Part shown: positions 27,574 to 41,827 of the stretch, one piece after another
Layout: every line of letters begins with the position of its first letter
Position numbering within the stretch: the stretch's first letter is position 1
Origin: Candidatus Spongiihabitans thiooxidans
GTDB lineage: Bacteria > Pseudomonadota > Gammaproteobacteria > Arenicellales > Poriferihabitantaceae
Assembly: GCA_001543005.1 (NCBI GenBank)
Contig: LFLB01000031.1
Coordinates: 2,637-66,636 of the forward strand
DNA length: 64,000 nt
Direction: 5' to 3'
Notes under the pieces: model-generated
Seen by the model: the letters and a program-made list of their open reading frames with translations, nothing else
Told to the model about the DNA's origin: nothing
Databases searched by the model: none
Made by a program: the position numbers and the translations under genes

Positions 27574-28827
27574 TCAGTGGTTTATTGCGTGGTCCAGCGC
27601 CATCAGTATTTTTTCCACTTCTTCAGTGCTGTTGTAATGCACCAAAGAAATACGCACCACACCATCATCGGCATCAATACCCAGATCGGTGAGTAAGCGA
27701 TGAGCGTAAAAGTGCCCGCTTTCGCAGCCGATTCCCATATCCTGAATTTTTGTGGAAACCGCCAGCGCACTTTGTTTCAGAGGTTGAAAAGCGATGGTCG
27801 GCACTCTGTCATTATCCCGGGTATGGTTTTTGCCTATGAGTCGCACTTTGTCGTCATTACCTAGAAAATCCAGAATAGGTGCTGTCAATTCGGTTTCATA
27901 GGCGGATATCAACGAATGCAGTTGCGTCATTCGTTGTGGCGCCATTCTTTGTGGCGCGCGGGGGGTGTCCTTAAAATGATGCTGATGCAGCGCGTCGAAA
28001 TAGTCCAGCACCCCGGCGCAGCTTGCAACCTGAGCGTGTTGCGGCCCAGCTGGGTTGAATAATTTGCTGTCGCAGCCAGTGTTAAAGTAGTGGCATTGCG
28101 GCGTTAGACCGGAAACAATTTCCCGATTGACATACAACAAGCTTTGATGGGGTCCATACACCTTATACAAACTAAACGCATAACCATCCACCCCTAACTC
28201 CTTCAAGTCGCATATATGGTGCGGGGCCTGAGCCACCGCATCGACGAATACTTTTGCATTGGAATTCTGTTTGACTCGCCGGGTGATTTCGCTGACAGGA
28301 TTAGAGGTGCCAACGATATTAGAGCAATGCGCGAAAAATACCCATTTGGTATTTTGGTTGACCAGGCAATCGAGTTGTTCCAGATCAAGCAATCCGCTTT
28401 CAAGGTTGACTTTCCATTCACAAATTTCCGCACCTTTTTCTGCCGCTTTTCTGCGCCACACCCCGCTGTTGGCTTCGTGGTCTTGATTGGTGACAATAAT
28501 TTCGTCTGTTGCCCCCAAATCAACGCCTATCGCTTGGGCCATAACGTAAGTATTCATTGAGGTAGAGGGCCCTATGGTTAATTCATTGGCTGAGATATTA
28601 AGCGCCTCGGCCCAACCCTCAATCGCCCGATCCATTGCTTCCCCGGCCTGGCTTGATGGCGCATAACGCTCGTAAGGCTGCACCCTAGTGTGGGAATTGT
28701 AGTGGTTCATCAAGGTATTGACCTGATTAGCCACATAACTGCCCCCTGCGTTTGAACAAAACACAAATTCCGGGTTATCATGCAGCTGGTTGAATTGTTT
28801 TCTGACGAATTCGATGTCTAGTTTCAT
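27574..28827 (-). CDS. Class V aminotransferase-fold PLP-dependent enzyme (cysteine desulfurase/SufS-like)
   Basis: 417 aa. The pattern ...HEANS..W......G......HCSN.VGT...........VDAV..APH...D........FS.YK.YGP matches class V enzymes. Confidence 0.8.
   Translation of the reverse strand: MKLDIEFVRKQFNQLHDNPEFVFCSNAGGSYVANQVNTLMNHYNSHTRVQPYERYAPSSQAGEAMDRAIEGWAEALNISANELTIGPSTSMNTYVMAQAIGVDLGATDEIIVTNQDHEANSGVWRRKAAEKGAEICEWKVNLESGLLDLEQLDCLVNQNTKWVFFAHCSNIVGTSNPVSEITRRVKQNSNAKVFVDAVAQAPHHICDLKELGVDGYAFSLYKVYGPHQSLLYVNREIVSGLTPQCHYFNTGCDSKLFNPAGPQHAQVASCAGVLDYFDALHQHHFKDTPRAPQRMAPQRMTQLHSLISAYETELTAPILDFLGNDDKVRLIGKNHTRDNDRVPTIAFQPLKQSALAVSTKIQDMGIGCESGHFYAHRLLTDLGIDADDGVVRISLVHYNSTEEVEKILMALDHAINH
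27928..27957. repeat. 15-bp in-frame tandem duplication inside the aminotransferase gene (encodes RAPQRMAPQRM)
   Basis: Read directly from the sequence. Confidence 0.85.
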
Positions 28828-28919
28828 TAGTCTTTAATTTCTGGTAAAATCCCCCCATATACCATATATATCAGGCAAGATACATTTCCATGATATTATT
28901 TGCCGCAACGGACAATATT

Positions 28920-29279
28920 ATGCCCAAGCCCACACAAGCCGAACCTATACAAGCCGATCTAAAAATCTCCAGCGACGCGATGAGTAGAATCACCGAGTTG
29001 CTTGCCACCAAGGACAATCCAGACTTGATGCTTCGCGTCTATATCCAGGGTGGCGGTTGTTCTGGTTTTCAGTACGGTTTTCAGTTTGACGAAAATCAGG
29101 AAGAAGATGACATCACCGTAGAACGCGACGGCATCAAAGTGTTAATCGATATGCTCAGTTTGCAGTATCTGAGCGGAGCGGAAATTGATTACAAGGATGA
29201 TCTGATGGGCAGCCGATTTCTGGTAAACAATCCTAATGCCTCAGCCACCTGCGGCTGTGGGTCTTCGTTTTCGATATAG
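28920..29279 (+). CDS. erpA: Iron-sulfur cluster insertion protein ErpA (A-type carrier)
   Basis: RVYIQGGGCSGFQYGFQFDE...VNNPNASATCGCGSSFSI. The start is set at ATG 28920. Confidence 0.9.
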   Translation: MPKPTQAEPIQADLKISSDAMSRITELLATKDNPDLMLRVYIQGGGCSGFQYGFQFDENQEEDDITVERDGIKVLIDMLSLQYLSGAEIDYKDDLMGSRFLVNNPNASATCGCGSSFSI

Positions 29280-29295
29280 ACGCATAACATTCGAC

Positions 29296-29557
29296 TCCAT
29301 GGAAGGGGGAGGTACGACCCCATGGAAGGGGGAGATAGAACTGAGTCTGGAACAGAAGTCGAGAGCGACGCAGGATGCCAAAGCCGACGACTCCAGGGAT
29401 GGGGGAGGTACGACCCCATGGAAGGGGAGATAGAACTGAGTCTGGAACAGAAGTCGAGAGCGACGCAGGATGCCAAAGCCGACGACCCCATGGAAGGGGG
29501 AGATAGAACTGAGTCTGGAACAGAAGTCGAGAGCGACGCAGGATGCCAAAGCCGACG
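29296..29557. repeat. Three tandem copies (96, 95 and ~71 bp) of a repeat unit in the erpA-grpE spacer
   Basis: Copies lie at 29296-29391, 29392-29486 (one G missing from a G-run) and 29487-29557 (lacks the first ~24 bp). The unit ends ...gcaggatgccaaagccgacgac. Confidence 0.95.
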
Positions 29558-29565
29558 GGGAGCAT

Positions 29566-29593
29566 TGACGGCTCTCTTGCGCTTTTGAATTTT
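29566..29593 (+). promoter_or_regulatory. Putative sigma32 (heat-shock) promoter of grpE
   Basis: CTTGCGC-13 nt-CCCCATAT compares with the sigma32 consensus CTTGAAA-N13-15-CCCCATNT. It lies ~50 nt upstream of the first grpE ATG. Confidence 0.55.
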
Positions 29594-29641
29594 ATCCCCA
29601 TATTTCCGCAATAATTTACAACTGTACCTATTAAGTCAATT

Positions 29642-30412
29642 ATGAGTCGAAAGTCAACAAAGTCCAACGATCAACGCTATCAGGAACCGCTTGGAAATAT
29701 CCATAAGAATATCCCTGAAGAACCAAATATCCTTGAACAAACCGCCGATGAGTTGGTTGATGAATCACCGCTTGGTGTTTCTGAGGACGACTGCATGGAT
29801 GCCAAAGCCGACGACCCCAGGGACGGGGGAGGTACGACTCCAAGGAAGGGGGAGGTAGAACTGAGTCTGGAGCAGAAGTCGAGGGCGACGCAGGATGCCA
29901 AAGCCGATGATTCCAGAGAGGATTTGATTGAAAAATTGGTCGCCGCGCACAGCCAGATCGATGAATTAAAAGACGGTTATATTCGGGCTAAAGCTGAAAT
30001 GGAAAATATTCGGCGGCGTAGCCAGAATGAAATGGTATCGGCCCGCAAATACGCAATCGAAGGATTTGCCCAGGAATTACTCGGTGTTGTTGATAGTCTG
30101 GATCAGGCGACCAGGGTTGAGATGGATAAGCCAAACGGAGAAACCGCCATTAATATGAAAGAGAATATGAAACAGGGGCTGGAATTGACCCTGAAGCAGT
30201 TTGATAAAGTAATGGAAAAGTTTGGCGTTATTGCGGTGGAGGCAGAACCCGGGGTAAAGTTTAATCCCGAAGTACATCAGGCGATTAGCGTGATTGCGAG
30301 CGATGAGGTTGAGCCTGAACATATTGTAAACGTGGTGCAAAAAGGTTTTTCCTTAAAAGATAGGTTATTACGTCCAGCGATGGTTGTGATTGCTAAAAGT
30401 CCCGAAAAATAG
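29642..30412 (+). CDS. grpE: Nucleotide exchange factor GrpE
   Basis: The core reads [18 protein letters not shown]...FNPEVHQAI...[17 protein letters not shown]. The start is ambiguous: ATG 29642 has no clear SD, while ATG 29795 is preceded by GAGGA. Confidence 0.9.
29797..29911. repeat. Fourth, diverged copy (plus an 18-bp partial) of the 96-bp erpA-grpE repeat, lying inside the grpE 5' coding region
   Basis: 29816-29911 aligns over 96 bp with 29296-29391 with a few substitutions. In the grpE frame it encodes [32 protein letters not shown]. Confidence 0.9.
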
Positions 30413-30422
30413 TGAAAAATCA

Positions 30423-30450
30423 CTTGTTATTCAATCGTTAACCCTTATAT
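30423..30450 (+). promoter_or_regulatory. Possible sigma32-type promoter of dnaK
   Basis: CTTGTTA-12 nt-CCCTTATAT is a weaker match than the grpE promoter. Confidence 0.35.
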
Positions 30451-30497
30451 CAAAGTCAGTTGTTTTAAGACCCAGGTTTATAGAGGACCCTAAAAAA

Positions 30498-32417
30498 ATG
30501 TCAAAAATTATAGGTATTGATCTTGGTACTACCAATTCCTGCGTTGCAGTGATGGAAGGCGGTACGCCCAAGGTTATCGAAAATAGTGAAGGTGATCGTA
30601 CCACGCCCTCCATCGTCGCGTTTACTAAAGATGGTGAGGTTTTAGTGGGGCAGTCAGCCAAACGTCAATCCGTTACTAACCCGGAAAATACAATCTTCGC
30701 AGTTAAACGTTTAATCGGACGTCAGTTCGACGAAGACGTGGTGCAGCGCGATATGGACTTAATGCCTTATAAAATTATTAAAGCCAAAAATGGTGATGCT
30801 TGGGTAGAGGCTGGCGGCAAACAAATGGCTTCACCAGAGGTCTCGGCGCGAATACTACAGAAGATGAAACAGACGGCTGAGGATTATCTGGGGGAAAAAG
30901 TGACCGAAGCGGTTATCACTGTACCCGCGTATTTCAATGACTCTCAGCGTCAGGCGACCAAAGATGCTGGAAAAATCGCTGGACTGGAAGTTAAACGAAT
31001 TATCAACGAACCTACCGCAGCAGCCTTGGCTTATGGCATGGACAAATCCAGGGGAGATCGAAAAATCGTGGTCTATGATTTAGGCGGCGGCACTTTCGAC
31101 ATCTCGATTATCGAGATTGCGGAAATTGAGGGCGAGCACCAATTTGAAGTGCTTTCAACCAATGGCGATACTTTCCTCGGCGGCGAAGATTTCGATCGGC
31201 GTTTGATCGATTATTTAGCCGATGAGTTTAAGAAAGACCAAGGCATGGATCTTCGAGGCGACCCGCTGGCAATGCAACGGCTCAAGGAGGGCGCTGAAAA
31301 AGCGAAAATCGAATTGTCTTCCAGCTCTCAAACCGAAGTCAACCTGCCGTATATCACCGCGGATGCCAGTGGACCGAAGCATTTGAATATGAAATTAACC
31401 CGCGCTAAATTGGAATCTCTGGTAGATGATTTATTGCAACGTACTTTGGGACCTTGCAAAATCGCCCTGCAGGACGCGGGACTAAAAGCCTCTGAAATCG
31501 ATGATGTCATACTGGTCGGTGGTCAAACACGGATGCCCAAAGTCCATGAAGTTGTTGAAAACTTTTTTGGAAAGGAGGCACGCAGAGATGTTAACCCCGA
31601 CGAGGCGGTAGCGGTTGGCGCCGCGATTCAAGGTGGCGTACTGGGCGGCGACGTTAAAGATGTATTGTTGCTGGACGTTACGCCATTGTCGTTAGGGATA
31701 GAAACGCTGGGCGGTGTTATGACTAAATTGGTCGAGAAAAATACCACAATCCCAACCAACGCCAGTCAGATATTTTCGACTGCTGACGACAACCAGAATG
31801 CGGTAACAGTCCATGTGCTACAGGGCGAGCGTGAAATGGCGAGTGGAAATAAGTCTTTGGGCCGATTCGATCTGACTGAGATTCCGCCGGCGGCGAGGGG
31901 AATTCCCCAAATTGAAGTCTCGTTTGATATCGATTCCAACGGCATTCTAAATGTATCGGCGAAAGACAAGGTCACCGGTAAAGAAAACAAAATTGTCATT
32001 AAATCGAGCTCTGGATTGTCTGACGCAGAAATTGATAAAATGGTTCGGGATGCTGAAGAGCATGCTGATGAAGACAGAAAAACCAGAGCATTAGTTGATG
32101 CACGCAACCAGGGTGAATCTCGGATACACGGTGTCAGGAAATCTTTGGATGAGCTTGGCGATAAAGTTGAGGCTACGGAAAAAGAAAACATCGAGTCTGC
32201 AATTTCAGAACTTGAACAAGCGCTAAAAGAAGATGACCTGGAAGCCATCACAGCTAAAACCGAAGCATTGACCCAGGCATCCCACAAATTAGCTGAGCAA
32301 GTGTATGCCCAGGCGCAAAGTGATCAATCCGGTGGTGATCATGGTGATGGTGACTCAGCTGACGATGTCGTGGATGCCGAATTTGAAGAAGTAGATGATG
32401 AGGACAAAAAATCCTGA
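30498..32417 (+). CDS. dnaK: Molecular chaperone DnaK (Hsp70)
   Basis: [18 protein letters not shown]..., DLGGGTFD, and the full Hsp70 architecture. Confidence 0.98.
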
Positions 32418-32424
32418 ATACATA

Positions 32425-32458
32425 ATAAGCGCCCATAAATAAGCGCCCATAAATAAGC
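32425..32458. repeat. 14-bp tandem repeat x2.4 (ataagcgcccataa) just after the dnaK stop
   Basis: Read directly from the sequence. Confidence 0.9.
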
Positions 32459-32464
32459 AAGCAG

Positions 32465-32488
32465 AAGCGGGGCCATGACCCCGCTTTT
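32465..32488 (+). terminator. Rho-independent terminator-like hairpin after dnaK
   Basis: AAGCGGGG-ccatga-CCCCGCTT is followed by TT(G). Confidence 0.7.
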
Positions 32489-32527
32489 GCATGTCAATTA
32501 TTAAACGGCGCGTATACAACGACAAAT

Positions 32528-33655
32528 ATGTCAAAAAAAGATTATTACGAAGTTCTGGATGTAAGCAGGGATGTCAGCGATCAAGACTTGAAAAAGGCCT
32601 ATCGTCGGCTGGCAATGAAACACCATCCAGATCGTAATCAAAATAGCGCGGAGTCCGAAGCTAAATTCAAGGAAGCCAAGGAGGCTTACGGTGTTTTGGG
32701 GGACGCTCAAAAACGTGCGGCATACGACCAGTTTGGCCATGCCGGGGTTGATCCCGCCAGTGGCATGGGCGGCGGTGCTGGAGTGGGTGGTTTTGGGGAC
32801 ATATTCGGGGACATATTTGGGGATATCTTCGGTGGCGGTGCAGCCGCAGGTCGTCGCAGAAATCGTGGCTCAGATTTACGATACCGTTTGAATCTGACCT
32901 TGGAGGAAGCGGTTATGGGCGTGGAAAAACAAATTCGCGTTCCGAAGATGGCAAATTGTGCGACTTGTGATGGCTCTGGATCGAGACCGGGTTCGAAAGC
33001 CAAAACATGTGATACCTGTCATGGACAGGGCCAGGTAAGAATGCAACAGGGATTTTTCTCGGTGCAACAGACTTGCCCACATTGCAAAGGGCAAGGAAAG
33101 GTAATTTCAGACCCATGCACATCGTGTCGTGGGCAAGGGGTGGTTAAACAGGAAAAAAACCTATCTGTGAAAATTCCTGCGGGCGTGGATGACGGCGATC
33201 AAGTGCGGTTGTCCGGTGAAGGCGAAAGTGCTGGTCAAGGCACTTCTCCCGGGGATTTGTATGTTCAGGTCAGGATAAAAAAGCACGATATATTTGAAAG
33301 GGATGGGGATAATTTGTATTGTGAGGTGCCGGTTAGCTACGTCAAATTGGCATTAGGCGGCGAGTTGGAAATACCCACATTATCCGGTCGCACGAATTTG
33401 AAAATTCCGGCTGAAAGCCAGTCAGAGCGAGTTTTCAGATTGCGCGGCAAAGGCGTGCGTAATGTACGCACTGGCAATCAAGGATATTTAGATTGTAAAG
33501 TGGTTGTGGAAACCCCGGTGAATTTAACCAGGGAACAGAAAAAGCTATTGAAAGATTTTGAAAAAAGTTTAACCGAGGGCGGAAATCGACATTCTCCACG
33601 CAGCAGTTCATGGACTGGCAAGATAAAATTTTTCTTTGACGAGTTGGTGCCTTGA
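32528..33655 (+). CDS. dnaJ: Molecular chaperone DnaJ
   Basis: It has a J-domain ([16 protein letters not shown]), a G/F region and four CxxCxGxG zinc motifs. Confidence 0.97.
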
Positions 33656-33721
33656 ATAGAACCTGCTCTTGCTGATGAATCACCCGGGAACAGGTGCACC
33701 AAAAAACCGGTTAATCTTTTA

Positions 33722-35641
33722 ATGTCTGAAAGTTACAACGTATTGGCAACCGGTGGACTGTTTCACCAGCAGATCGAAGACTTCACACCGAGATTGGCGC
33801 AGCAAGAGATGGCACAGGCGGTTGAGGATTCTCTAGCCTTTTCAGGCCGGCTGGTGGTTGAATCCGGCACCGGCACCGGCAAGACTTACGCCTACCTTGT
33901 TGCCGTGGTGCTCAGTGGAAAACGTACTATTATTTCGACCGGCACGAAACATTTGCAGGCGCAAATTTTTGATCGTGATCTGCCGGTTGTGCTCAGCGTG
34001 CTTGATGAAACTGTCAGTGCGCAAATGCTGAAAGGGCGTGCCAATTATTTGTGCCGGTATCGCCTTAAACTAAACAGTCAGCAAAGCGATTTGGTGGGAA
34101 AAGCAAATCAGCTTGCATATGACGTGATCGATAAATGGGCTGCGCGGACGAAATCTGGCGATATTTCAGAAGTTTCTGATGTGAATGAGGATGATCCAGT
34201 ATGGAAACAGGTTACTTCGACAACGGATAACTGCCTCGGTGGAAAATGTCCCGACTACAGAAACTGTTTTGTCAACCAGGCTCGGCAACGCGCCATGAAG
34301 GCGGACATCGTGGTGGTAAATCATCATCTGTTCTTTTCTGATTTGACCCTTAAAACCGAAGGGTTTGGTGAGTTGTTGCCCGACCATGAGGCGGTAATTT
34401 TTGATGAGGCGCATAGTATTGCCAATATTGCGTCACAGTTTTTCGGGTTTTCATTGTCCAGTTTTCAATTAAAGGAGTTAACTAAAGATGTATTGGCGGC
34501 GGAAAAGGAGGAAAAAAGCACAGTAGATTTTGACGTTTGTATTCCTGCTCTGGAAAATCAAATAGATAAAATTCAGGGATATTGCAAGCGGCTTAAAAAT
34601 TCTACAGAAGTCCTGGCTAATTTAAAAAACGCCAAATTCGATGAATTGCTTGAATCTTTAGTGGTAAAGCTGGACGACCTGCAAAATGCTTTAAGCCTTG
34701 CCGCGCCCGTCGGTGAGGGTTTGTCACGTTGCCAAAAGCGTTGCTTGAAAATTCAAAATCAACTGGATCGTTGGTGGGAAAATCGAGATAAAAATTCTGT
34801 GTGTTGGCTGGAGGCCGGAAAATTCTGGTTCAGAATTAATTTAACGCCGCTTAATGTCGGCGTTCATTTTTCAAAATTTATTGAAAACGCTGGCAACCCT
34901 AGCGTGTCGTGGATTTTTACCTCCGCGACTTTGGCGGTGAAGGATGATTTTACCGCGTTTTGCAGCGAGATTGGTTTGGAGAATGCAGAAACGCGACGAT
35001 GGGAAAGTCCGTATGATTTTCAACAAAATGCGATGATGTACCTGCCGGCGGGATTGCCCGACCCCAGAGAATCAAATTTCTTTCAGGCATTGGCGGCTAC
35101 CATACTGGATGTGACTAGCGCCAGCAACGGGCGGGCATTTTGTTTATTTACCAGTCACGCCATGATGGAAAATGTTTATCAATTGCTGCATGGCAATTGC
35201 AAATGGCCATTGTTTGTGCAGGGACGGGCTGCAAAACAACAGCTGCTGGAACAATTCCTCCAGTCTGAAAATGCAGTTTTGTTGGGCACCTCAAGTTTTT
35301 GGGAGGGGGTCGATGTCAAAGGCGAGGCACTCAGTTGCGTAATCATAGATAAACTGCCGTTTGCATCGCCTGCAGAACCGGTACTGAAGAGTAAATTGCA
35401 AAATAGTGAGGAACAGGGCGGGAATCCGTTTATGGATATTCAAATTCCCAATGCAGTGATTGCACTTAAACAGGGAGCGGGGCGTTTAATTCGCTCTGAA
35501 TCCGACCGCGGAATACTGGTCATTTGTGATCAGAGGATGACCACGAAAGCCTATGGCAGTTTGTTTTTGAAAAGCCTGCCACCGATGCCGGTAACTCAAA
35601 GTCTTTATGATGTGCAACGATTTTTTGCGTCGTGTCGATAG
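33722..35641 (+). CDS. yoaA: ATP-dependent DNA helicase, DinG/YoaA (XPD-like, Fe-S) family
   Basis: Walker A is ESGTGTGKT and DEAH-like is FDEAHS. Fe-S cysteines occur in C..GKCPDYRNCF. The length of 639 aa resembles YoaA. Confidence 0.75.
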   Translation: MSESYNVLATGGLFHQQIEDFTPRLAQQEMAQAVEDSLAFSGRLVVESGTGTGKTYAYLVAVVLSGKRTIISTGTKHLQAQIFDRDLPVVLSVLDETVSAQMLKGRANYLCRYRLKLNSQQSDLVGKANQLAYDVIDKWAARTKSGDISEVSDVNEDDPVWKQVTSTTDNCLGGKCPDYRNCFVNQARQRAMKADIVVVNHHLFFSDLTLKTEGFGELLPDHEAVIFDEAHSIANIASQFFGFSLSSFQLKELTKDVLAAEKEEKSTVDFDVCIPALENQIDKIQGYCKRLKNSTEVLANLKNAKFDELLESLVVKLDDLQNALSLAAPVGEGLSRCQKRCLKIQNQLDRWWENRDKNSVCWLEAGKFWFRINLTPLNVGVHFSKFIENAGNPSVSWIFTSATLAVKDDFTAFCSEIGLENAETRRWESPYDFQQNAMMYLPAGLPDPRESNFFQALAATILDVTSASNGRAFCLFTSHAMMENVYQLLHGNCKWPLFVQGRAAKQQLLEQFLQSENAVLLGTSSFWEGVDVKGEALSCVIIDKLPFASPAEPVLKSKLQNSEEQGGNPFMDIQIPNAVIALKQGAGRLIRSESDRGILVICDQRMTTKAYGSLFLKSLPPMPVTQSLYDVQRFFASCR

Positions 35642-35674
35642 CATCAAATCGACAACATCGGCTGAATACAATCT

Positions 35675-36406
35675 ATGAAAATACTTGCCATAGACACCGC
35701 GACTGAAGCTTGTTCTGTGGCGCTATCAACCGCTCAGGAAATTATTCAGAAGTATGACATTCAGTCCATCGGGCAGCCGGCCGCACATTCGAGATTAGTA
35801 TTGCAAATGGTGGAAGATGTACTACAAAAATCAAACTTCAGACTGGGCAATTTGGATGCCATTGCGGTAAACACTGGACCGGGATCATTCACGGGCGTCA
35901 GAATCGGTTTGGGCGTGGCCCAGGGCTTGGCTTATGGTGCGGACTTGCCGGTTATTGGTGTCTGTTCGTTGGCAGTGTTGGCCGCATCAATTGAGAGTGG
36001 TGTGGTATTGCCGGCTATTGATGCACGAATGAATCAGGTTTATTGCGGACTCTATGAAGTGGTTAAAAGTTCTAAACCGATTCAACTGTATCACCCGGTG
36101 GTGGTTAATCCGGGTTCAATGCCGTTTCCGGTAAACAAATCCGCCTGCGGCTTAGGCAGCGGTTGGGATGTTTATGGCGACGCCATTATCGCGGGTATTG
36201 GGCACAACGAAATAAACCGCTTATCGGTGCGCTATCCCGAAGCAAAATATCTGGCCAAAGTCGCGCAACAATCGGGCTTGGAGTCGGCGGTGGCACCCAT
36301 GCAACTGCAGGCAACTTATGTCAGAAATAACATCGTTGAATCCCGAAAGCGGCTTCCTCCGGGAACACGTCCTGTCCGGCACGCCGACCACGCCCGGGGT
36401 CACTGA
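35675..36406 (+). CDS. tsaB: tRNA t6A biosynthesis protein TsaB (YeaZ), with a non-native C-terminal tail
   Basis: MKILAIDTATEACSVAL...GPGSFTGVRIG. After ...ATYVRNN (~36330) the frame runs into G+C-rich foreign DNA, reading ...RKRLPPGTRPVRHADHARGH. Confidence 0.85.
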   Translation: MKILAIDTATEACSVALSTAQEIIQKYDIQSIGQPAAHSRLVLQMVEDVLQKSNFRLGNLDAIAVNTGPGSFTGVRIGLGVAQGLAYGADLPVIGVCSLAVLAASIESGVVLPAIDARMNQVYCGLYEVVKSSKPIQLYHPVVVNPGSMPFPVNKSACGLGSGWDVYGDAIIAGIGHNEINRLSVRYPEAKYLAKVAQQSGLESAVAPMQLQATYVRNNIVESRKRLPPGTRPVRHADHARGH

Positions 36407-36577
36407 ATTGACCTATACGGCCACCGACAGTGCCACGGCGCAAGGTGTTTCGGCTTCCCGTGGTCTATCGAGCCATGGCCGGACTGGACGGCCACCGACA
36501 GTGCCACGGCGCAAGGTGTTTCGGCCCAGCACAAGAGGCAAAAATTGAGAACCAAAGCAAATACAACCGCCGCGTAA
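36330..36577 (+). pseudogene. Fragment of a cadherin-like/putative-Ig (He_PIG-like) repeat protein gene, frame-broken
   Basis: It reads SLNPESGFL..SGTPTTPGVTELTYTATDSATAQGVSA, the usual L.P.TG.LSGTPT..G.Y.FTVTATD pattern. A 38-bp stretch (36417-36454) recurs at 36488-36525 in another frame. No plausible full-length gene exists. Confidence 0.4.
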
Positions 36578-36646
36578 TCGTGGTGTTTGGTGAGGGGAAG
36601 GGGTGAGAACGAGTGAGGAATGAAATTTCCCTGCCTGTTTTCCGTC

Positions 36647-38209
36647 TCAGTCGTACACCACTCTGAAGCCTATGCTGTCAGAGCGGTGAGTGAGGGGCAG
36701 CAGTCGCCCAAACATGCTGCGCGCTGTGGTTTTGCCGGGTAACAGCCAGTTACCGCCCTGCACCCAGGCGGCGTAGTCGCCTCGTTCGGCGGTTATAGAG
36801 AGGGTCCACTCCGAGACGTTGCCGGCCAGGTCGTACACGCCGTTGGTGGTGCTGTCGTGTACTGCGTCCGCGCACTGGCGCGGCCCCGGTTCGGTCTGAT
36901 CGCCGGTGGCGGCGTTGTTCACCACATAATCACCGCCCCAAGGGTACGGATTGGCATCCGGCCCTGCGGCTAACAGTTGCCACTCTTCAACCAGGGGCAA
37001 TCGTCCGCCGGCCCAGCGGGCAAATGCGTCCGCCGCCCACCAGTTGATTCCGCTTACCGGCAGTTCGGGTCGCTGCAGTTGCTGTTCCCAGTTTTGCGGC
37101 ATGTAGTTTTGCCAGCGTGGTTCGTGTTCGTTGGCAAACAGACCGAGGCGCACCAGTGGATGACGTAAAAATGAGCGGTATTCGCTACGACTGACTTCGC
37201 AACGGCTTACCTCCATACGCCGTGCCCTCTGGGTTTGACTGATGAGACTGCGCGCTTTGCGTTGCCGTGCCGCCGGCAACAGTACCGCAATCCGGGCCAG
37301 CCGTAAGTCCCGTGGTACACCGAGCGGATAGTGGCCAACGGGAATCACCACCGATTTCGGCATCGCGCCCCACGGCAGGGTCGTCGCCGGTGGTTGTTGA
37401 TAGACGCAACGAAAACCCAGATGGTGGCTGCGCGTTTGTGGCTCAATATCAAGCCGGGCAGCGGCCAGTGCATACAGCGGCCGCCCGCGTGCGCGCATCG
37501 CCGGCGCACCGTGCGCCCCTGGCTGCCGTTCCAGAGGGTGTATGCCGCGCTGACCGCGGCTCCACTCCATCACATTGCCGGCCAGATCATGCACGCCTTC
37601 GGGTGTTGCCGTCGTTGGGTGCAGCGCGCAGGGTTTCGCGGCGTTGCGATGAGCGCTTTGGTAGGGCCAGGGGCTGTCATCGAAGGTGTCGCCCCATGGA
37701 TACAAACGCCCCTCACGCCCAACCGCCATCGCTTCCCATTCCTCGGCCCAAGGCAGGCGGCCGCCCGCTGCTGCGCAGTAGGCGACGGCGCCGTTGTAGT
37801 TCACTCCGCTTGCCGGAGACTGTAGCAATCCGGCGATGCGATGGCCGCTGGATGAACTGTACAATGCCTCCGGGTCGGACACCGGTGCACCGTCGCGTTG
37901 TTGCCAGCGTGCGAAACGCTCAAAGTCAAGTTGCCGCACTTCGCAGGTATCAGCCCAGAAGGAATTGATTTGTGTAGTATAAGCCGGTCGGTCCAGACGT
38001 CGCCGTAGCTCAGTGCCGAAATACCCGCGCTCCAGCGCTTCAAACAGAAACTGGTCAAACGCCCGGGCACGGGAGCTGTGCGATGCTTCAAAGCCGAGTT
38101 CCACGGTCACGGTATCGTTGTGCAACGCCCGAGAATCGAACTGGGTCAGTAACAACAGCAACAACACCAATGTGCCAAGACCGAATGCGGCGATGCGGTA
38201 TTGCTTCAT
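36647..38209 (-). CDS. Tandem FGE-sulfatase-fold (SUMF1/EgtB/PvdO family) protein with an N-terminal signal/anchor; the catalytic Cys pair is absent
   Basis: Domain 1 has YCAAAGGRLPWAEEWEAMA, RLYPWGD, HDLAGNVMEWS and HLGFRCVY. Domain 2 has FARWAGGRLPLVEEWQLLA, NPYPWGG, YDLAGNVSEWT and SIGFRVVYD. The start is set at MKQYRIAAFGLGTLVLLLLLL (ATG 38209), forming an ATGA overlap with the upstream stop. Confidence 0.85.
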   Translation of the reverse strand: MKQYRIAAFGLGTLVLLLLLLTQFDSRALHNDTVTVELGFEASHSSRARAFDQFLFEALERGYFGTELRRRLDRPAYTTQINSFWADTCEVRQLDFERFARWQQRDGAPVSDPEALYSSSSGHRIAGLLQSPASGVNYNGAVAYCAAAGGRLPWAEEWEAMAVGREGRLYPWGDTFDDSPWPYQSAHRNAAKPCALHPTTATPEGVHDLAGNVMEWSRGQRGIHPLERQPGAHGAPAMRARGRPLYALAAARLDIEPQTRSHHLGFRCVYQQPPATTLPWGAMPKSVVIPVGHYPLGVPRDLRLARIAVLLPAARQRKARSLISQTQRARRMEVSRCEVSRSEYRSFLRHPLVRLGLFANEHEPRWQNYMPQNWEQQLQRPELPVSGINWWAADAFARWAGGRLPLVEEWQLLAAGPDANPYPWGGDYVVNNAATGDQTEPGPRQCADAVHDSTTNGVYDLAGNVSEWTLSITAERGDYAAWVQGGNWLLPGKTTARSMFGRLLPLTHRSDSIGFRVVYD

Positions 38210-39945
38210 TTTCGCCACGCCGTGGCCAAGCGTCGCACCAGCAACAGGAAGCCGAGCAGGCAAACTATCAATATGGCGTACAACGTTACCAGCCAACCGC
38301 GTGTCCCGAACCCGGCTTCTTGGTACGGTGTCAGCAGCGGGCGACCGTTCAGGCGTACCCGGTTGTCCTCGGCTTGCACCACCAGCCGCCCGTCGGCATC
38401 AATGCTGGCATCAATGAAGCCGATGATAAAGTCATCAAACTTGGGCGCGATGTAGGCCACCGCTCGCCAACGCAACTGGTTGGCACGTTGTTGTTTCGGC
38501 GGCATCAACAGTATTGAGTTCCATTCAAGCGGTAGCGAAAGGCCGCGCCACACGTCGGGATGGGTGTTTAGCTGCAGTAGTGGACGCGCTACCGCAGGCA
38601 GCGACGCGGCATTATGTCGTGCCTGCCCGACCGAGACCTGCTGTAGCCGCCGATTGGGCTCAATGATAAGTGCCGTGTTCGCCTGCTCCTCAAACTCAAG
38701 CGAGATGACTTTGAGTTGCGGTTGGTTGCGCCCATCGGCGGCAGGCGGTTGGATTCCCATAGCCAGGTCTTCGGGAAAATTTTGTGCCAGATTCTGGAAT
38801 ACATCCCAAACCAGCGTGCTCACCAGTGTGCGTGTTTGCGGATCAAGTTCCAGCGGCGCAGTGAATGCACGGCTGAGCAGTTGCTCAAAATTTGCCAGCT
38901 GGGCGCTCGGTGAGGCACCCGCATCCAGGGTTGCTTGCAACTTGCCGATGAAATCAAACAGCACCATTAGCACCCGTTCTACTGTCGGTTCGGTGTCGCC
39001 CCAGTTGAGCGCCTGAGCGCTATCCGGGCGCAGCGACTCCGGCGTGGAAAGCCGAAAACGGATGCGCCCGTCGCCCTCGCCCGCCGGTGCACCGAGCAAC
39101 CCTTGAGACTGCGAGCCGGGACGCGCATTGGGAAAACTGCCGCCCAGAGCGCTACTGCCGAAGTTGGTCGCGTCTGCAAACGAGCCGAAACCGGTCGCGC
39201 CCGGTAACGGACCGGGGACGGCCCCGCCTGGGAATGCACCGAAGCCGGCCGCCGCACCTTCGTCGGGTGCTCCCGGAAAACCCGGCGGCGGCCAGGTTTC
39301 ATCGCCACCGCCACCGCCGTCGCCCTGCGCCAGTGTCGGCAAGGCCGATGCCGCCGCCGAGCCGGTGCCCGCACCACAATCCTGGGCGGCGACAGCGGGC
39401 GGGCACTGGCCAGCCTGGGCCAGATCCAGCCCGCCAGAGAGAAAATGCCAATGCTGCACGGTGATGTCGTGGTCGCGCAAAATTGACATGGCCAGATAGA
39501 ATTGGGCGATGTCATACACGTCGGCGCGCAGACGCCGTTTGCGATCCTGGTCAAAATCGGCAAGCCAAGCGTCCATGCCGTTCGGTTCGCGCAATAACTG
39601 TTCTCGACGCCAGATTGTCCCGCTGTAAAATTCACGCACGAAGCCGCGGTGTAATTCAATAATCGGCAACACGTCGGGGTCGTACTGTTGATCGAGCGGC
39701 GAGTTGCGGTAGTCGTGCAACTGTGCCGGCCTGCTCGCCGCCAGGCTGTTCAGTACCAGCGAGGTGCTGAAGCGGCGGCTCATCATCGTTGCCACTTCTT
39801 CTATCTGCGAAGCGGTACGTTGTTCGTGTTCGCCGCGCGCGGCGATGCTGAGCACGATGACGATAATCAGCATCGCCAGGCCGTTGGCGAGGATATCCAC
39901 TAACGCAGTGCCAGAGAAATCGGGCATTTGCATCCGCCGTTTCAT
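38206..39945 (-). CDS. Hypothetical bitopic envelope protein with an ExbD/TolR-like N-terminal anchor, a Gly/Phe/Pro-rich spacer, a large unknown domain and a C-terminal TM
   Basis: The 579 aa show these parts. The N-terminus is KRRMQMPDFSGTALVDILANGLAMLIIVIVL. Low complexity spans ~aa 180-293 (GFPGAPDEGAAAGFGAFPGG...TGFGSFADATNFGSS). The C-terminal TM is GWLVTLYAILIVCLLGFLLLVRR. ATGA overlaps occur at both ends. Confidence 0.6.
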   Translation of the reverse strand: MKRRMQMPDFSGTALVDILANGLAMLIIVIVLSIAARGEHEQRTASQIEEVATMMSRRFSTSLVLNSLAASRPAQLHDYRNSPLDQQYDPDVLPIIELHRGFVREFYSGTIWRREQLLREPNGMDAWLADFDQDRKRRLRADVYDIAQFYLAMSILRDHDITVQHWHFLSGGLDLAQAGQCPPAVAAQDCGAGTGSAAASALPTLAQGDGGGGGDETWPPPGFPGAPDEGAAAGFGAFPGGAVPGPLPGATGFGSFADATNFGSSALGGSFPNARPGSQSQGLLGAPAGEGDGRIRFRLSTPESLRPDSAQALNWGDTEPTVERVLMVLFDFIGKLQATLDAGASPSAQLANFEQLLSRAFTAPLELDPQTRTLVSTLVWDVFQNLAQNFPEDLAMGIQPPAADGRNQPQLKVISLEFEEQANTALIIEPNRRLQQVSVGQARHNAASLPAVARPLLQLNTHPDVWRGLSLPLEWNSILLMPPKQQRANQLRWRAVAYIAPKFDDFIIGFIDASIDADGRLVVQAEDNRVRLNGRPLLTPYQEAGFGTRGWLVTLYAILIVCLLGFLLLVRRLATAWRK

Positions 39946-40475
39946 GGCGTTTTCTCGACGTAGTTCTGGATGTAGTCGGGGATGTCGTTCAGCGTCACCG
40001 ATTTGAGCAGTTCATTATCGGCGATTACCCAGCCGATGGCTAATACCTGTTGCGGCCACATCTGGCGTAAACACTCGCGCGCTAACGCCATGCTTAGCAC
40101 ACTGCCTTCCAGCATGAAAAACACCAGCTGGTTGCCGTTGTCCTGGTAAACGCGCCGGGCATAGTCAACGAAGGGGCTACCCGCCGCGCACACCTCAGCC
40201 GGGTTGATGCTGATGCCGGTTTCAATGATACGTAACTCGTCAGGAAAGGTGATCACCACGTAACCGCTACCGCCGTCAAGGCGTTCAATGCGGTACAGAC
40301 CGTCTTCGCTGTTGCGCTCCAGCCGTTCGCGTTGTGCCGCATCGGAATATAGGTTGACCACTACCAGAAACACCAACAGCACGCCAAACACGCCGCCGAA
40401 AATGGCCATCATTGGCGCGTTGTTCTCTTCTTGCAAGGCGTCCGCGGCAACGCGCCGCGCCGATGTGCGTCTCAC
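39942..40475 (-). CDS. Hypothetical single-pass membrane protein, ExbD/TolR-like by topology and N-terminal pattern
   Basis: 177 aa. The GTG start is preceded by GAGGAG. The N-terminus is ...EENNAPMMAIFGGVFGVLLVFLVVV, followed by a ~125-aa soluble domain. Similarity to ExbD was judged by eye only. Confidence 0.5.
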   Translation of the reverse strand: MRRTSARRVAADALQEENNAPMMAIFGGVFGVLLVFLVVVNLYSDAAQRERLERNSEDGLYRIERLDGGSGYVVITFPDELRIIETGISINPAEVCAAGSPFVDYARRVYQDNGNQLVFFMLEGSVLSMALARECLRQMWPQQVLAIGWVIADNELLKSVTLNDIPDYIQNYVEKTP

Positions 40476-40650
40476 TTCGGACTCCTCAGATTTTCAAGGC
40501 ACGAGTACGGGCATGAATTCAAGATCAAACTTAAGCATCGCCTATACTCGATGCCACGTTCTACTTCGCACCCCTTAGATTTTAAAGGAACGAGCACGAG
40601 CATGAATTCAAGATCAAACTTCAACATAGTCTATACTCAATGCCAAGTTC
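40474..40650. repeat. Two tandem ~89-bp AT-rich repeats inside the G+C-rich cassette
   Basis: 40474-40562 and 40563-40650 align with ~80% identity by eye. Copy 1 supplies the SD and GTG of the 177-aa gene. Confidence 0.9.
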
Positions 40651-40713
40651 AAAGAATTTATAAACGAGGTGAAAGAATTTATAAACGAGGTGCAGAAATT
40701 TATAAACGAGGTA
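40651..40713. repeat. 21-bp tandem repeat x3 (aaagaatttataaacgaggtg), overlapping the stop codon of the MotA/ExbB-like gene
   Basis: Read directly from the sequence. Confidence 0.95.
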
Positions 40714-41782
40714 AGGCATCCGACCGGGTTTTTTGCAAACGCCGTTCAAGAGTGGCGAGCAAGCGTTCTTCGCTACGTTGCACCAGTGCCAACACCAGCA
40801 TCAGCAGCACGCTCAACGACAGCGCGATTAAGGTAGTGTCAAAGGCGATGCCGAGCGGAGCGATGGCGGCGTCCAGGTCGCTCGACAGGCTGGCCAGCCC
40901 GGCATCCGAGGCGATGATACGGCGGATGCCATCAGCCGCCAGCGAAATACCGAGCACGGTGCCGATGAAACCCAAAATCGGCACGGCCCAACAGATGTAG
41001 CGTGGAATCAACCAAGATTCCTCGTGCCGCCGCCATAACAACTGCATAGACATGTCAAGGTCGGTGGGGTTTGCGCTGAGCACATCCAGGCTGGCGGCGA
41101 AGGGCGAAACTCGCATGCGCGGGTTGGTGCGCCAACCTGTCAGTACCCGGCGCAAGTACCAGCCGTTCCACGATTTGCCGAGCAACAGCAACATACCCCA
41201 GAAAAACAGTAGCATGGTGATCGGCGGAATCACGCCGCGTTCCAGAAAGCGCCGCGTCAGTGATTGCACATCGGCGGCGCCGCGCGCCAGTAGCTCAAGG
41301 CCGAGAATCGTGCCGGCACACAGAATCAGCGCGGTGATTAGCGACGGCAATATGCCCGGGCCGTAGATCAGGCGCGCCAGACGTTCAAGGCTTTGTTCGT
41401 GTTCGCCGGAGTTCACAGTGGCAACCCACAGGTTACAGGCGTGGAGCGCGAGCACGGCGATAAACATTGGCATCATGCGCCCGGCCCAGGCACCGCTGGC
41501 GCCGGCGCTAATCACCTGCCAGGCGGGCACCGCCAGTACCAGCGCCACCGCCACCAGAGCGATTGTGCCCAGCGCCAATAGACAAGTGAACAGTGCGTGG
41601 CGGGTGCCGAGGAAAAACCAGGTAATCACCAGCGCCCCGAGTGCAAGCACCGATGATACTGTGGCCAGCCACACGGGTAGTTCCAGTACCCGTGTCAGAT
41701 TGATGGCGACGAGTGTTAGCAGGATGAAATAAAGAAGCAGCGACAAGCGGGCAGGCCAGTATAAAGTCATGGGCGGTCTCAA
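40700..41782 (-). CDS. MotA/TolQ/ExbB proton-channel family protein with an extended polytopic N-terminal region
   Basis: The C-terminal part WAVPILGFIGTVLGISLAADGI...LDAAIAPLGIAFDTTLIALSLSVLLMLV matches the LG(L/F)xGTVxG ... G(I)xxAxxTTxxGL signature of MotA_ExbB. About six further hydrophobic segments lie N-terminal. Confidence 0.75.
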   Translation of the reverse strand: MRPPMTLYWPARLSLLLYFILLTLVAINLTRVLELPVWLATVSSVLALGALVITWFFLGTRHALFTCLLALGTIALVAVALVLAVPAWQVISAGASGAWAGRMMPMFIAVLALHACNLWVATVNSGEHEQSLERLARLIYGPGILPSLITALILCAGTILGLELLARGAADVQSLTRRFLERGVIPPITMLLFFWGMLLLLGKSWNGWYLRRVLTGWRTNPRMRVSPFAASLDVLSANPTDLDMSMQLLWRRHEESWLIPRYICWAVPILGFIGTVLGISLAADGIRRIIASDAGLASLSSDLDAAIAPLGIAFDTTLIALSLSVLLMLVLALVQRSEERLLATLERRLQKTRSDALPRL

Positions 41783-41827
41783 GATGTTGGTTTTTGTGGT
41801 AGCGGTAGGGTCAGGCTCAATTCAATT

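Follow-up and report, generated by a model that had tools for sequence, protein, structure and literature searches.

The cassette and its genes

In this study, we examined a tandem formylglycine-generating-enzyme (FGE)-fold gene, G4, of Candidatus Spongiihabitans thiooxidans, together with the three genes that precede it on the reverse strand (G1, G2 and G3). All four lie in a stretch of 64,000 nucleotides of contig LFLB01000031.1, which is the whole of the DNA analysed and is called the window from here on. The window derives from a sponge metagenome and is closest to Candidatus Spongiihabitans (Arenicellales, Poriferihabitaceae). Among the sequencing runs listed for its sequence there was no RNA run, a result that is silent as to expression. 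G4 occupies 36647-38209 of the minus strand and encodes 520 residues, with its stop codon at 36647-36649. The longest minus-strand open reading frame (ORF) for this gene runs from 36647 to 38296; the likeliest start is the ATG at 38209, which overlaps the stop codon of the upstream G3 as ATGA and at which the homologues begin. The features of the cassette, with the kind of evidence on which each assignment rests, are as follows.

36407-41827, no strand: G+C-rich inserted block with the four-gene cassette, between tsaB and a ccsA-like gene (G+C content, empty site in a relative)
40700-41782, minus strand: G1, 360-residue polytopic membrane protein, the last ~100 residues MotA/ExbB/TolQ-like (PILGFIGTVLGIS ... 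APLGIAFDTTLIALS) (Pfam)
39942-40475, minus strand: G2, 177-residue single-pass protein with a conserved periplasmic domain and invariant C96 and C135 (alignment)
38206-39945, minus strand: G3, 579 residues, with a conserved membrane Asp and a TolR/ExbD-like domain at ~90-170 (alignment, AlphaFold2 (AF2) model, structure searches)
36647-38209, minus strand: G4, tandem FGE-fold protein, 520 residues (ORF, Pfam, AF2 model)
38144-38209, minus strand: G4 N-terminal basic residues and hydrophobic helix, residues 1-22, signal anchor or signal peptide (AF2 helix 2-22, family statistics)
37394-38119, minus strand: G4 FGE-fold domain 1, residues ~31-272, with C145/C268 and the family-specific C89/C194 (Pfam, alignments)
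37418-37561, minus strand: G4 domain 1 segment equivalent to that of the catalytic pair, residues 217-264, without Cys and strongly conserved (alignments)
36650-37357, minus strand: G4 FGE-fold domain 2, residues ~285-520, with C337/C446 and without the YC/GFRC cysteines (Pfam, alignments)
36674-36805, minus strand: G4 domain 2 segment equivalent to the FGE catalytic loop, residues 469-512, without Cys (alignments)

Loss of the catalytic site in G4

A first-pass annotation of this DNA, made from the sequence alone, had described two full FGE-fold motif series in G4, and all of the motifs that it quoted were found. Domain 1 carries AAGGRLPWAEEWE (residues 147-159), YPWG (170-173), DLAGNVMEW (208-216) and GFRCVY (265-270), and domain 2 carries WAGGRLPLVEEWQ (399-411), YPWG (422-425), DLAGNVSEW (460-468) and GFRVVY (514-519). 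The two cysteine-free segments that it gave correspond to residues 217-263 and 470-512. The FGE-sulfatase domain (PF03781), of a C-type-lectin-like fold, is matched twice in G4, with a Pfam E-value of 1.1e-49, and a family search of the genome placed the two copies at 37403-38011 and 36656-37360. The domains share 34% identity (E 6e-19), and a 45-nt DNA repeat with a spacing of 756 nt marks the duplication from which they stem. The AF2 model of the whole protein is well predicted (predicted local distance difference test, pLDDT, 86; predicted TM score, pTM, 0.78).

Human FGE has Cys336 and Cys341 in its active site, a catalytic pair that binds copper, as well as the structural disulfides Cys346-Cys235 and Cys365-Cys218 (PMC4505483). 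In the phmmer alignment with human FGE, domain 1 shows gaps over the stretch that holds the catalytic cysteines, and C145 and C268 (of the YC and GFRC motifs) align with the cysteines of the structural disulfide C218-C365. Domain 2 aligns through VQGGNWLLPG to LRGASWIDTADG of pFGE, and has neither the catalytic cysteines nor a pair of the C218-C365 type. No cysteine is present in either catalytic-loop segment in any of the 97 relatives aligned (0/97), and both segments are conserved in forms of their own: HGAP...R...R..YAL...TRSHH in domain 1 and W.QGGNWLLPG...FGR..PL.HRS in domain 2. Six cysteines of G4 are invariant in the same alignment. Among them, C89/C194 and C337/C446 are family-specific pairs at equivalent positions of the two domains, and each pair is lost jointly in distant relatives, the behaviour expected of disulfide partners in an oxidising compartment. 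Because the copper-binding pair is lost in both domains, G4 is, as judged from its sequence, a pseudo-enzyme and not a sulfatase maturase. The first-pass annotation had claimed as much on both counts: the absence of the cysteine pair is confirmed by the gaps in domain 1, the GGNWLLPG of domain 2 and the 97 relatives, and the rejection of a maturase role is borne out by the missing cysteines and by homologues that are not linked to sulfatases.

For both domains, the best phmmer match in the PDB is pFGE/SUMF2 (1y4j; E 2e-12 and 7e-10), a paralogue of human FGE that is not catalytic, which is also the top Foldseek match of G4 in the PDB and, like G4, has an FGE fold without the catalytic cysteine pair. 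The resemblance ends there: pFGE is a single-domain, soluble eukaryotic protein of the endoplasmic reticulum, whereas G4 is bacterial, membrane-anchored and tandem, has cysteine pairs of its own and belongs to a motor cassette. FGE structures were matched by Foldseek at E-values from 1e-10 to 1e-8. In VIA comparisons, the model of G4 scored Z 21.8 with CalU17, 21.5 with EgtB, 21.2 with CarF, 20.3 with pFGE, 19.9 with PorK, 19.7 with human FGE and 18.6 with PvdO, so that catalytic and non-catalytic proteins of this fold tie (18.6-21.8). The fold alone therefore leaves the function undecided, and it is the missing residues that decide.

The N-terminus of G4 consists of about two basic residues and then an uncharged helix of ~19 residues. 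The first ~35 residues hold no cysteine, in G4 or in 92 of the 97 relatives, and a conserved lipobox is absent, so G4 would not be a lipoprotein; here too, the first-pass description (a hydrophobic signal or anchor without a lipobox Cys) fits what was found. At a possible cleavage site, position -1 is mostly small (S, A, G or T in 87/97) and position -3 mostly Leu (46/97). The helix may thus be a signal anchor or a cleavable signal peptide, cleavage being neither affirmed nor excluded by these statistics. Given the hydrophobic helix and the conserved cysteine pairs, both domains are predicted to be periplasmic, either anchored or released.

The motor-like partners

At the C-terminal end of G1, Pfam detects MotA_ExbB with an E-value of 4.2e-4, just under the cut-off of the family, and the family is matched by 18 of 24 G1 relatives at E <= 0.01 (best E 3.9e-6). 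PADLOC gave weak ZorA matches over the channel helices of G1 (E 1.4e-5 to 5e-3). The protein carries in addition a large polytopic extension at its N-terminus, which is embedded in the membrane.

G3 begins with a transmembrane (TM) helix in which Asp17 (ALVDILANG) is conserved in all 27 models with a complete N-terminus among 28 aligned relatives. Its AF2 model (pLDDT 74) continues with a long helix and a well-predicted alpha/beta domain (residues ~90-190), followed by a Gly/Pro-rich linker (193-292) that is disordered and varies greatly in length among relatives, helical and beta domains (322-524) and a second TM helix (548-578). When the alpha/beta domain was compared with 48,161 chains, TolR 5by4 came top (VIA Z 6.7, root-mean-square deviation (rmsd) 3.2, 93 residues aligned); TolR 2jwk gave Z 5.4 with an rmsd of 2.2, and ExbD 8pek a TM score of 0.54. 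The top match of the domain in a shape search of the Atlas was likewise an ExbD cluster. On the evidence of the model, and with scores that are modest throughout, this domain is likely to be TolR/ExbD-like. The relationship was not detected by sequence profiles, Foldseek found nothing in the PDB at E <= 0.001, and the Atlas's own model of G3 was poor and gave no useful matches. A separate, ordinary ExbD/TolR gene is present elsewhere in the genome.

G2 has no consistent Pfam family at E <= 1, no significant profile match in the PDB and only unnamed clusters in the Atlas. With hhalign, its TM region weakly matches an alignment of ExbD/TolR relatives (E 0.059), and G2 matches the N-terminus of G3 at E 0.066. 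In the TM helix of G2, the place of the Asp is taken by Ala.

Within the window's cassette, an intergenic gap occurs only between G1 and G2, genes which abut or overlap in most relatives. Two tandem, AT-rich repeat units of ~89 bp (40474-40650) fill most of it. The same unit is a dispersed repeat of this genome (17 more matches, spread over seven contigs and often in tandem); a resident repeat has thus invaded the acquired operon and separates G1 from G2-G4.

Coupling of G4 to the motor genes

To place G4 in context, we compared 50 related loci from a species-level genome collection, 46 of which had enough upstream DNA to be informative. The order G1-G2-G3-G4 is kept in all 46, and the stop of G3 abuts or overlaps the start of G4 in most loci, an arrangement of translational coupling. 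Three more distant metagenomic relatives (32-43% identity) carry the same four genes. A survey of this kind had been put forward in the first-pass annotation, and the one made here found linkage to the stator-like genes in every informative locus and no sulfatase among the recurring flank families tested.

The closest association of G3 and G4 is seen in one clade, composed of two gammaproteobacterial metagenome-assembled genomes (MAGs) and one Thermodesulfobacteriota MAG, in which the two genes are a single ORF of ~1,100-1,160 residues (L041:6144-9545, L042:6231-9518 and L060, 6051-9533). An independently called protein of 1,118 residues (P0149) is the same G3-G4 fusion. At another locus (P0072), G3 is split into genes of 265 and 405 residues. 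Taken together, the split and the fusions indicate that the C-terminal half of G3 and G4 behave as a module. Thus, as regards the first-pass proposal of a binding or scaffold module coupled to the stator genes, the coupling is upheld by synteny, gene overlap and fusions, while binding or scaffolding is still something we infer.

Prediction of a complex between G4 and residues 294-579 of G3 gave a weak signal, with a median ipSAE of 0.56 (0.69, 0.40 and 0.56 in the three runs) and 0.02 for the best control; the runs share at least 75% of their contacts, and the partner pLDDT is at least 73. This tool was calibrated on 80 solved and 110 mismatched pairs, of which 58 and 2, respectively, reached the pass mark. 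Scores of 0.60 or less accounted for only 7 passes among the 80 solved pairs and for both of the mismatched passes, so that a pass in this range counts only where the pairing is already likely. For G4 and G3, the natural fusions make it so.

Outside the four genes, the neighbourhood is variable. Flanking families recur in at most 8 of the 50 loci, the largest being HEAT-repeat, Ser/Thr kinase, TPR, PhyH, TonB-dependent receptor and peptidase families. No sulfatase was found among the recurring flank families of the 50 loci that were tested by Pfam, and none lies on the window's contig; the two sulfatase genes of the genome are on other contigs (C22 and C5). The earlier statement that no sulfatase gene is present nearby is therefore correct for this contig and for the recurring families tested.

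A search of 1.84 billion representative proteins with a profile of G4 returned 313 matches at E <= 1e-30, of which ~45 are full-length, single-stretch matches of 480-580 residues. Among five distant relatives with adequate contigs, three keep the cassette and two stand alone.

Several further observations concern the surroundings of this gene family. Two other loci of the genome with an FGE-sulfatase domain (C7:252067-252715 and C5:54984-55735) have in-frame stops inside the match; they are possibly pseudogenes, frameshifts or split genes. HEAT, TPR and Ser/Thr kinase genes recur beside the cassette in subsets of loci (L038, L049, L056 and others), outside the conserved unit, and genes for eukaryote-like repeat proteins are typical of the genomes of sponge symbionts. 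CreA lies downstream of the cassette in two metagenomic loci and does not recur in the 50 genome loci. Solo genes for distant (33-35% identical), membrane-anchored tandem FGE-fold proteins, lacking G1-G3 homologues within 7 kb, were seen at L087:7001-8572 and L089:7001-8587. The latter is divergent beside a Cytochrom_C_asm (ccsA-like) gene, and the cassette of the window also adjoins a ccsA-like gene.

A probable binding module of a proposed ion-driven motor

Ion-driven 5:2 motors (Mot, Tol, Ton, GldLM and Zorya) are among the few routes by which energy is carried beyond the inner membrane. We consider it probable that G4 is a non-catalytic, lectin-like output or binding module of such a motor, of the 5:2 type and driven by the proton-motive force. 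G4 would be the ligand- or partner-binding head of a four-protein machine of the inner membrane. In this machine, G1 would form the ion channel ring of the MotA/ExbB/TolQ type, and G3, possibly with G2, would put a TolR/ExbD-like helix with its protonatable Asp into that ring. Ion flow would then turn or pull G3, and the motion could reach the C-terminal domain of G3 through the long, flexible Gly/Pro-rich linker. This domain would be anchored beside G4 by adjacent TM helices and would probably bind G4. The conserved grooves that in FGE take a peptide substrate may here hold an envelope component instead, be it a glycan or an extended peptide.

A number of results weigh against this interpretation. 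The G1 of the window stays below the Pfam cut-off for MotA_ExbB (20.5 versus 22.9 bits), and by sequence the profile of the G1 family recovers no solved MotA, ExbB or TolQ chain. G2 has no known family at all. The match of G3 to TolR (Z 6.7) is below the caution level of the tool, which is 8, and the score of the G4-G3 complex falls in the band classed as weak. The conserved loop of domain 1 (H233, R239, R243, R260, H262 and H263) might form a novel kind of catalytic or metal site. Finally, the two solo relatives P0166 and P0186 (33-35% identity) have no motor genes within 7 kb, so the fold can perhaps function by itself.

The loop of domain 1 is the basis of one alternative, by which G4 would be an enzyme with some other chemistry, such as an oxidase or a periplasmic modifier of small molecules or peptides, acting through its His and Arg residues. 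We hold this to be improbable. Chemistry of other kinds has been proposed for the Cys-less FGE-fold proteins PvdO, CalU17, ToxD and CarF, and the three neighbours of G4 with the highest Z (CalU17, EgtB and CarF, at 21.8, 21.5 and 21.2) are biosynthetic; within the 97 close relatives, moreover, H233, G234, A235, R243 and S261 are invariant, and R239, T259, R260, H262 and H263 are kept in at least 90%. However, H233, H262 and H263 are not kept in P0160 and P0171, two distant relatives that are linked to the cassette, and in the distant relatives whose neighbouring genes were surveyed it is the scaffold residues and C145/C268 that persist, while the His residues of the loop do not. Pfam finds neither a DinB nor another cofactor domain in G4, no biosynthetic genes recur near the cassette, and the protein that both domains match best by sequence, pFGE, is inactive. 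The biosynthetic neighbours themselves do not distinguish the readings, since catalytic and non-catalytic proteins tie in Z. A true FGE, a sulfoxide synthase of the EgtB/OvoA type, or the variable protein of a diversity-generating retroelement (DGR) has a negligible chance in our estimate, despite the FGE-sulfatase domain, the partial NCBIfam matches of G4 to EgtB, SenA and OvoA, and the presence of TvpA and Mtd among its structural neighbours. The comparison with FGE and EgtB ligands that the first-pass annotation had proposed found no catalytic cysteines of FGE and no DinB/3-His domain. A sulfatase-maturing FGE is rejected by the missing pair and by the location of the sulfatases and the other FGE-domain genes on other contigs. 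EgtB/OvoA-type chemistry is rejected as well: FGE-sulfatase is the sole Pfam family of G4, with no match to the DinB-like domain that bears the 3-His iron triad of EgtB, and the NCBIfam scores are 57.9 bits versus a cut-off of 360 for EgtB, 54.8 versus 420 for SenA and 16 versus 400 for OvoA, each confined to the FGE-like part of G4. The PvdO equivalog scores 20.5 bits versus a cut-off of 500, and no pyoverdine genes lie in the G4 flanks examined. As for a DGR, no reverse transcriptase (RVT_1) is found in the genome, which is 96.9% complete; the test for a template and variable repeat pair was negative, the sole internal repeat being that of the domain duplication, and the loop positions that would be variable rank among the most conserved in G4. 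The public annotation as a "SUMF1/EgtB/PvdO family nonheme iron enzyme" is probably misleading as to function.

Known motor systems offer two further alternatives. PorK/GldK, the FGE-fold partner of the 5:2 motor PorLM/GldLM, shares with G4 the Cys-less form of the fold and the company of an ion-driven inner-membrane motor of the 5:2 type, as is predicted for the cassette. PorK 9mzu is indeed a structural neighbour of G4 (Z 19.9, rmsd 3.2, 213 residues aligned; Foldseek E 8.9e-7), and the NCBIfam GldK model matches residues 411-502 (E 6.3e-9). Nevertheless, a place for G4 in the ring or track of a type IX secretion or gliding-type apparatus, as a PorK/GldK- or GldJ-like component, is in our view very improbable. 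The partial GldK match reaches 35.6 bits, versus a cut-off of 350, and G1-G3 have no Pfam match to the GldL, GldM or GldN families. PorK is a lipoprotein of the outer membrane that forms a ring with PorN, whereas G4 lacks the lipobox cysteine, has two FGE domains and would sit at the inner membrane beside G3; the hosts of the cassette are Pseudomonadota, Nitrospirota and others, not Bacteroidota. The other system is Zorya, whose ZorA-ZorB pair resembles the cassette in having a MotA-like/MotB-like core in a mobile unit. In an anti-phage or conflict system of this type, the motor would sense damage to the envelope with G4 as its periplasmic sensor, a role compatible with a non-catalytic G4; we give this a small chance. 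The ZorA models on G1 are the only PADLOC matches in the cassette, which is mobile and atypical in G+C and has variable neighbourhoods, some of them with toxin-antitoxin and restriction-modification genes. The TM region of G2 also has a non-significant profile match (E 0.69) to a chain of 8qyd labelled only "Membrane protein", which we take to be ZorB. Against this, PADLOC matches neither G2, G3 nor G4, no peptidoglycan-binding domain of the ZorB type was detected, a cytoplasmic effector such as a nuclease, a helicase or an equivalent of ZorC/D is missing from the cassette, and no defence gene recurs in the flanks. G1, moreover, lacks the long cytoplasmic tail of ZorA, its own extension being N-terminal and embedded in the membrane.

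The motor core favoured here, with G4 as its binding module, has its nearest analogues elsewhere. The C-terminal helices of G1 and the Asp-bearing TM helix and TolR/ExbD-like periplasmic domain of G3 recall TolQ-TolR and ExbB-ExbD, and the disordered Pro/Gly-rich linker of G3, followed by a globular C-terminal domain, recalls TolA and TonB. In contrast to Tol and Ton, linker and head are fused to the TolR-like G3 itself, which re-enters the membrane by a second TM helix; G1 has its polytopic N-terminal extension, no TonB/TolA helix of the SHLS type is present, and the partner of the head is a double pseudo-FGE. A closer parallel is found in the "monomeric force transducers" predicted by Williams-Jones et al. 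(Mol Biol Evol 2025; PMC12204202), the transpore-helix (TPH)-vWA proteins, in which a TolR-like transpore helix with a conserved Asp is followed by a linker and a globular periplasmic head, and which are encoded as heterologous pairs beside a tolQ-like gene. By analogy, the cassette resembles Tol and Ton, and even more these transpore-helix transducers. The heads of the latter are vWA domains, whereas the cassette has a helical/beta head and a separate tandem FGE-fold protein. The main text of PMC12204202 makes no mention of FGE, sulfatases or sponges, and a sponge metaproteome (PMC6081418) mentions Thioalkalivibrio sp. HK1 and none of the cassette proteins. In the literature searched, where the sponge and symbiont papers were judged by title and abstract, no account of the cassette came to light.

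Whenever another output module of such motors has been found, new envelope biology has come with it, and the present cassette couples a motor-like core to a double, enzyme-dead FGE/lectin-like protein. More tentatively, and with less confidence than in the binding role of G4, it may represent a new class of ion-driven 5:2 motor, in which the TolR-like axle carries a linker and head of its own, the head being matched with a double, lectin-like pseudo-FGE, and which is traded among bacteria as a trait of sponge symbiosis. If so, it would count as a variant of none of Tol, Ton, Mot, Zorya and the type IX secretion system, and by sensing or gripping glycans, either from the host or of the cell wall, it might serve to remodel the envelope of the symbiont or to escape being digested by the host. 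As a compact unit of four genes, the cassette is suitable for expression and imaging.

Horizontal spread and insertion site

Relatives (48-91% identity) come from MAGs whose records bear the names Ca. Poriferihabitaceae, Ca. Porisulfidus, Thioalkalivibrio sp. HK1, Azotimanducaceae and Pseudomonadales, and further from Alphaproteobacteria, Nitrospirales (two at chromosome level), Myxococcota, Spirochaetales and Thermodesulfobacteriota MAGs. Sponge-symbiont MAGs of at least five phyla are represented, and the cassette is almost confined to sponge-associated bacteria, association with sponges being judged here by the titles of the genome records. For many of these records, the source is apparently a sponge genome project like those reported in PMC12859430 and PMC12988363.

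The G4 tree disagrees with the taxonomy of the hosts. Non-proteobacterial sequences stand inside gammaproteobacterial clades on well-supported branches, and Poriferihabitaceae are found in at least four separate clades. Mis-binned MAG contigs could affect this picture in draft bins, though not in the megabase chromosomes. The cassette is also atypical in composition, with a G+C content of 0.60 versus 0.47 for the region and a third-position G+C (GC3) of 0.67-0.72 versus 0.43-0.51, and its G+C exceeds that of the flanks in nearly every locus. The congener G002 has an empty tsaB-ccsA junction of ~120 bp. In the closest congener, L012, the cassette also lies between tsaB and ccsA; L011 has only the ccsA side in common, and more distant congeners carry the cassette elsewhere. 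The conflict between tree and taxonomy, the atypical G+C, the variation in site and the empty site of G002 together point to repeated horizontal transfer of the cassette among bacteria that share sponges. With its occurrence in sponge-associated bacteria and the exchange seen in the tree, the cassette is thus a candidate for a habitat-specific, transferable function of the envelope, within an animal-microbe symbiosis that ranks among the oldest.

A perfect 38-bp direct repeat (36417-36454 and 36488-36525, at a spacing of 71 bp) sits on the left border of the G+C-rich block, in the interval from the extended tsaB end to the G4 stop codon. The tsaB ORF of the window is ~20 codons longer at its end than the orthologue in G002. 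In L012 (Ca. Spongiihabitans, OZ250154), ~0.7 kb separates the G4 stop from the tsaB homology, and ~2.6 kb of extra DNA is present within the region collinear with 28000-36400 of the window. Both differences show that close relatives are not alike at the left junction.

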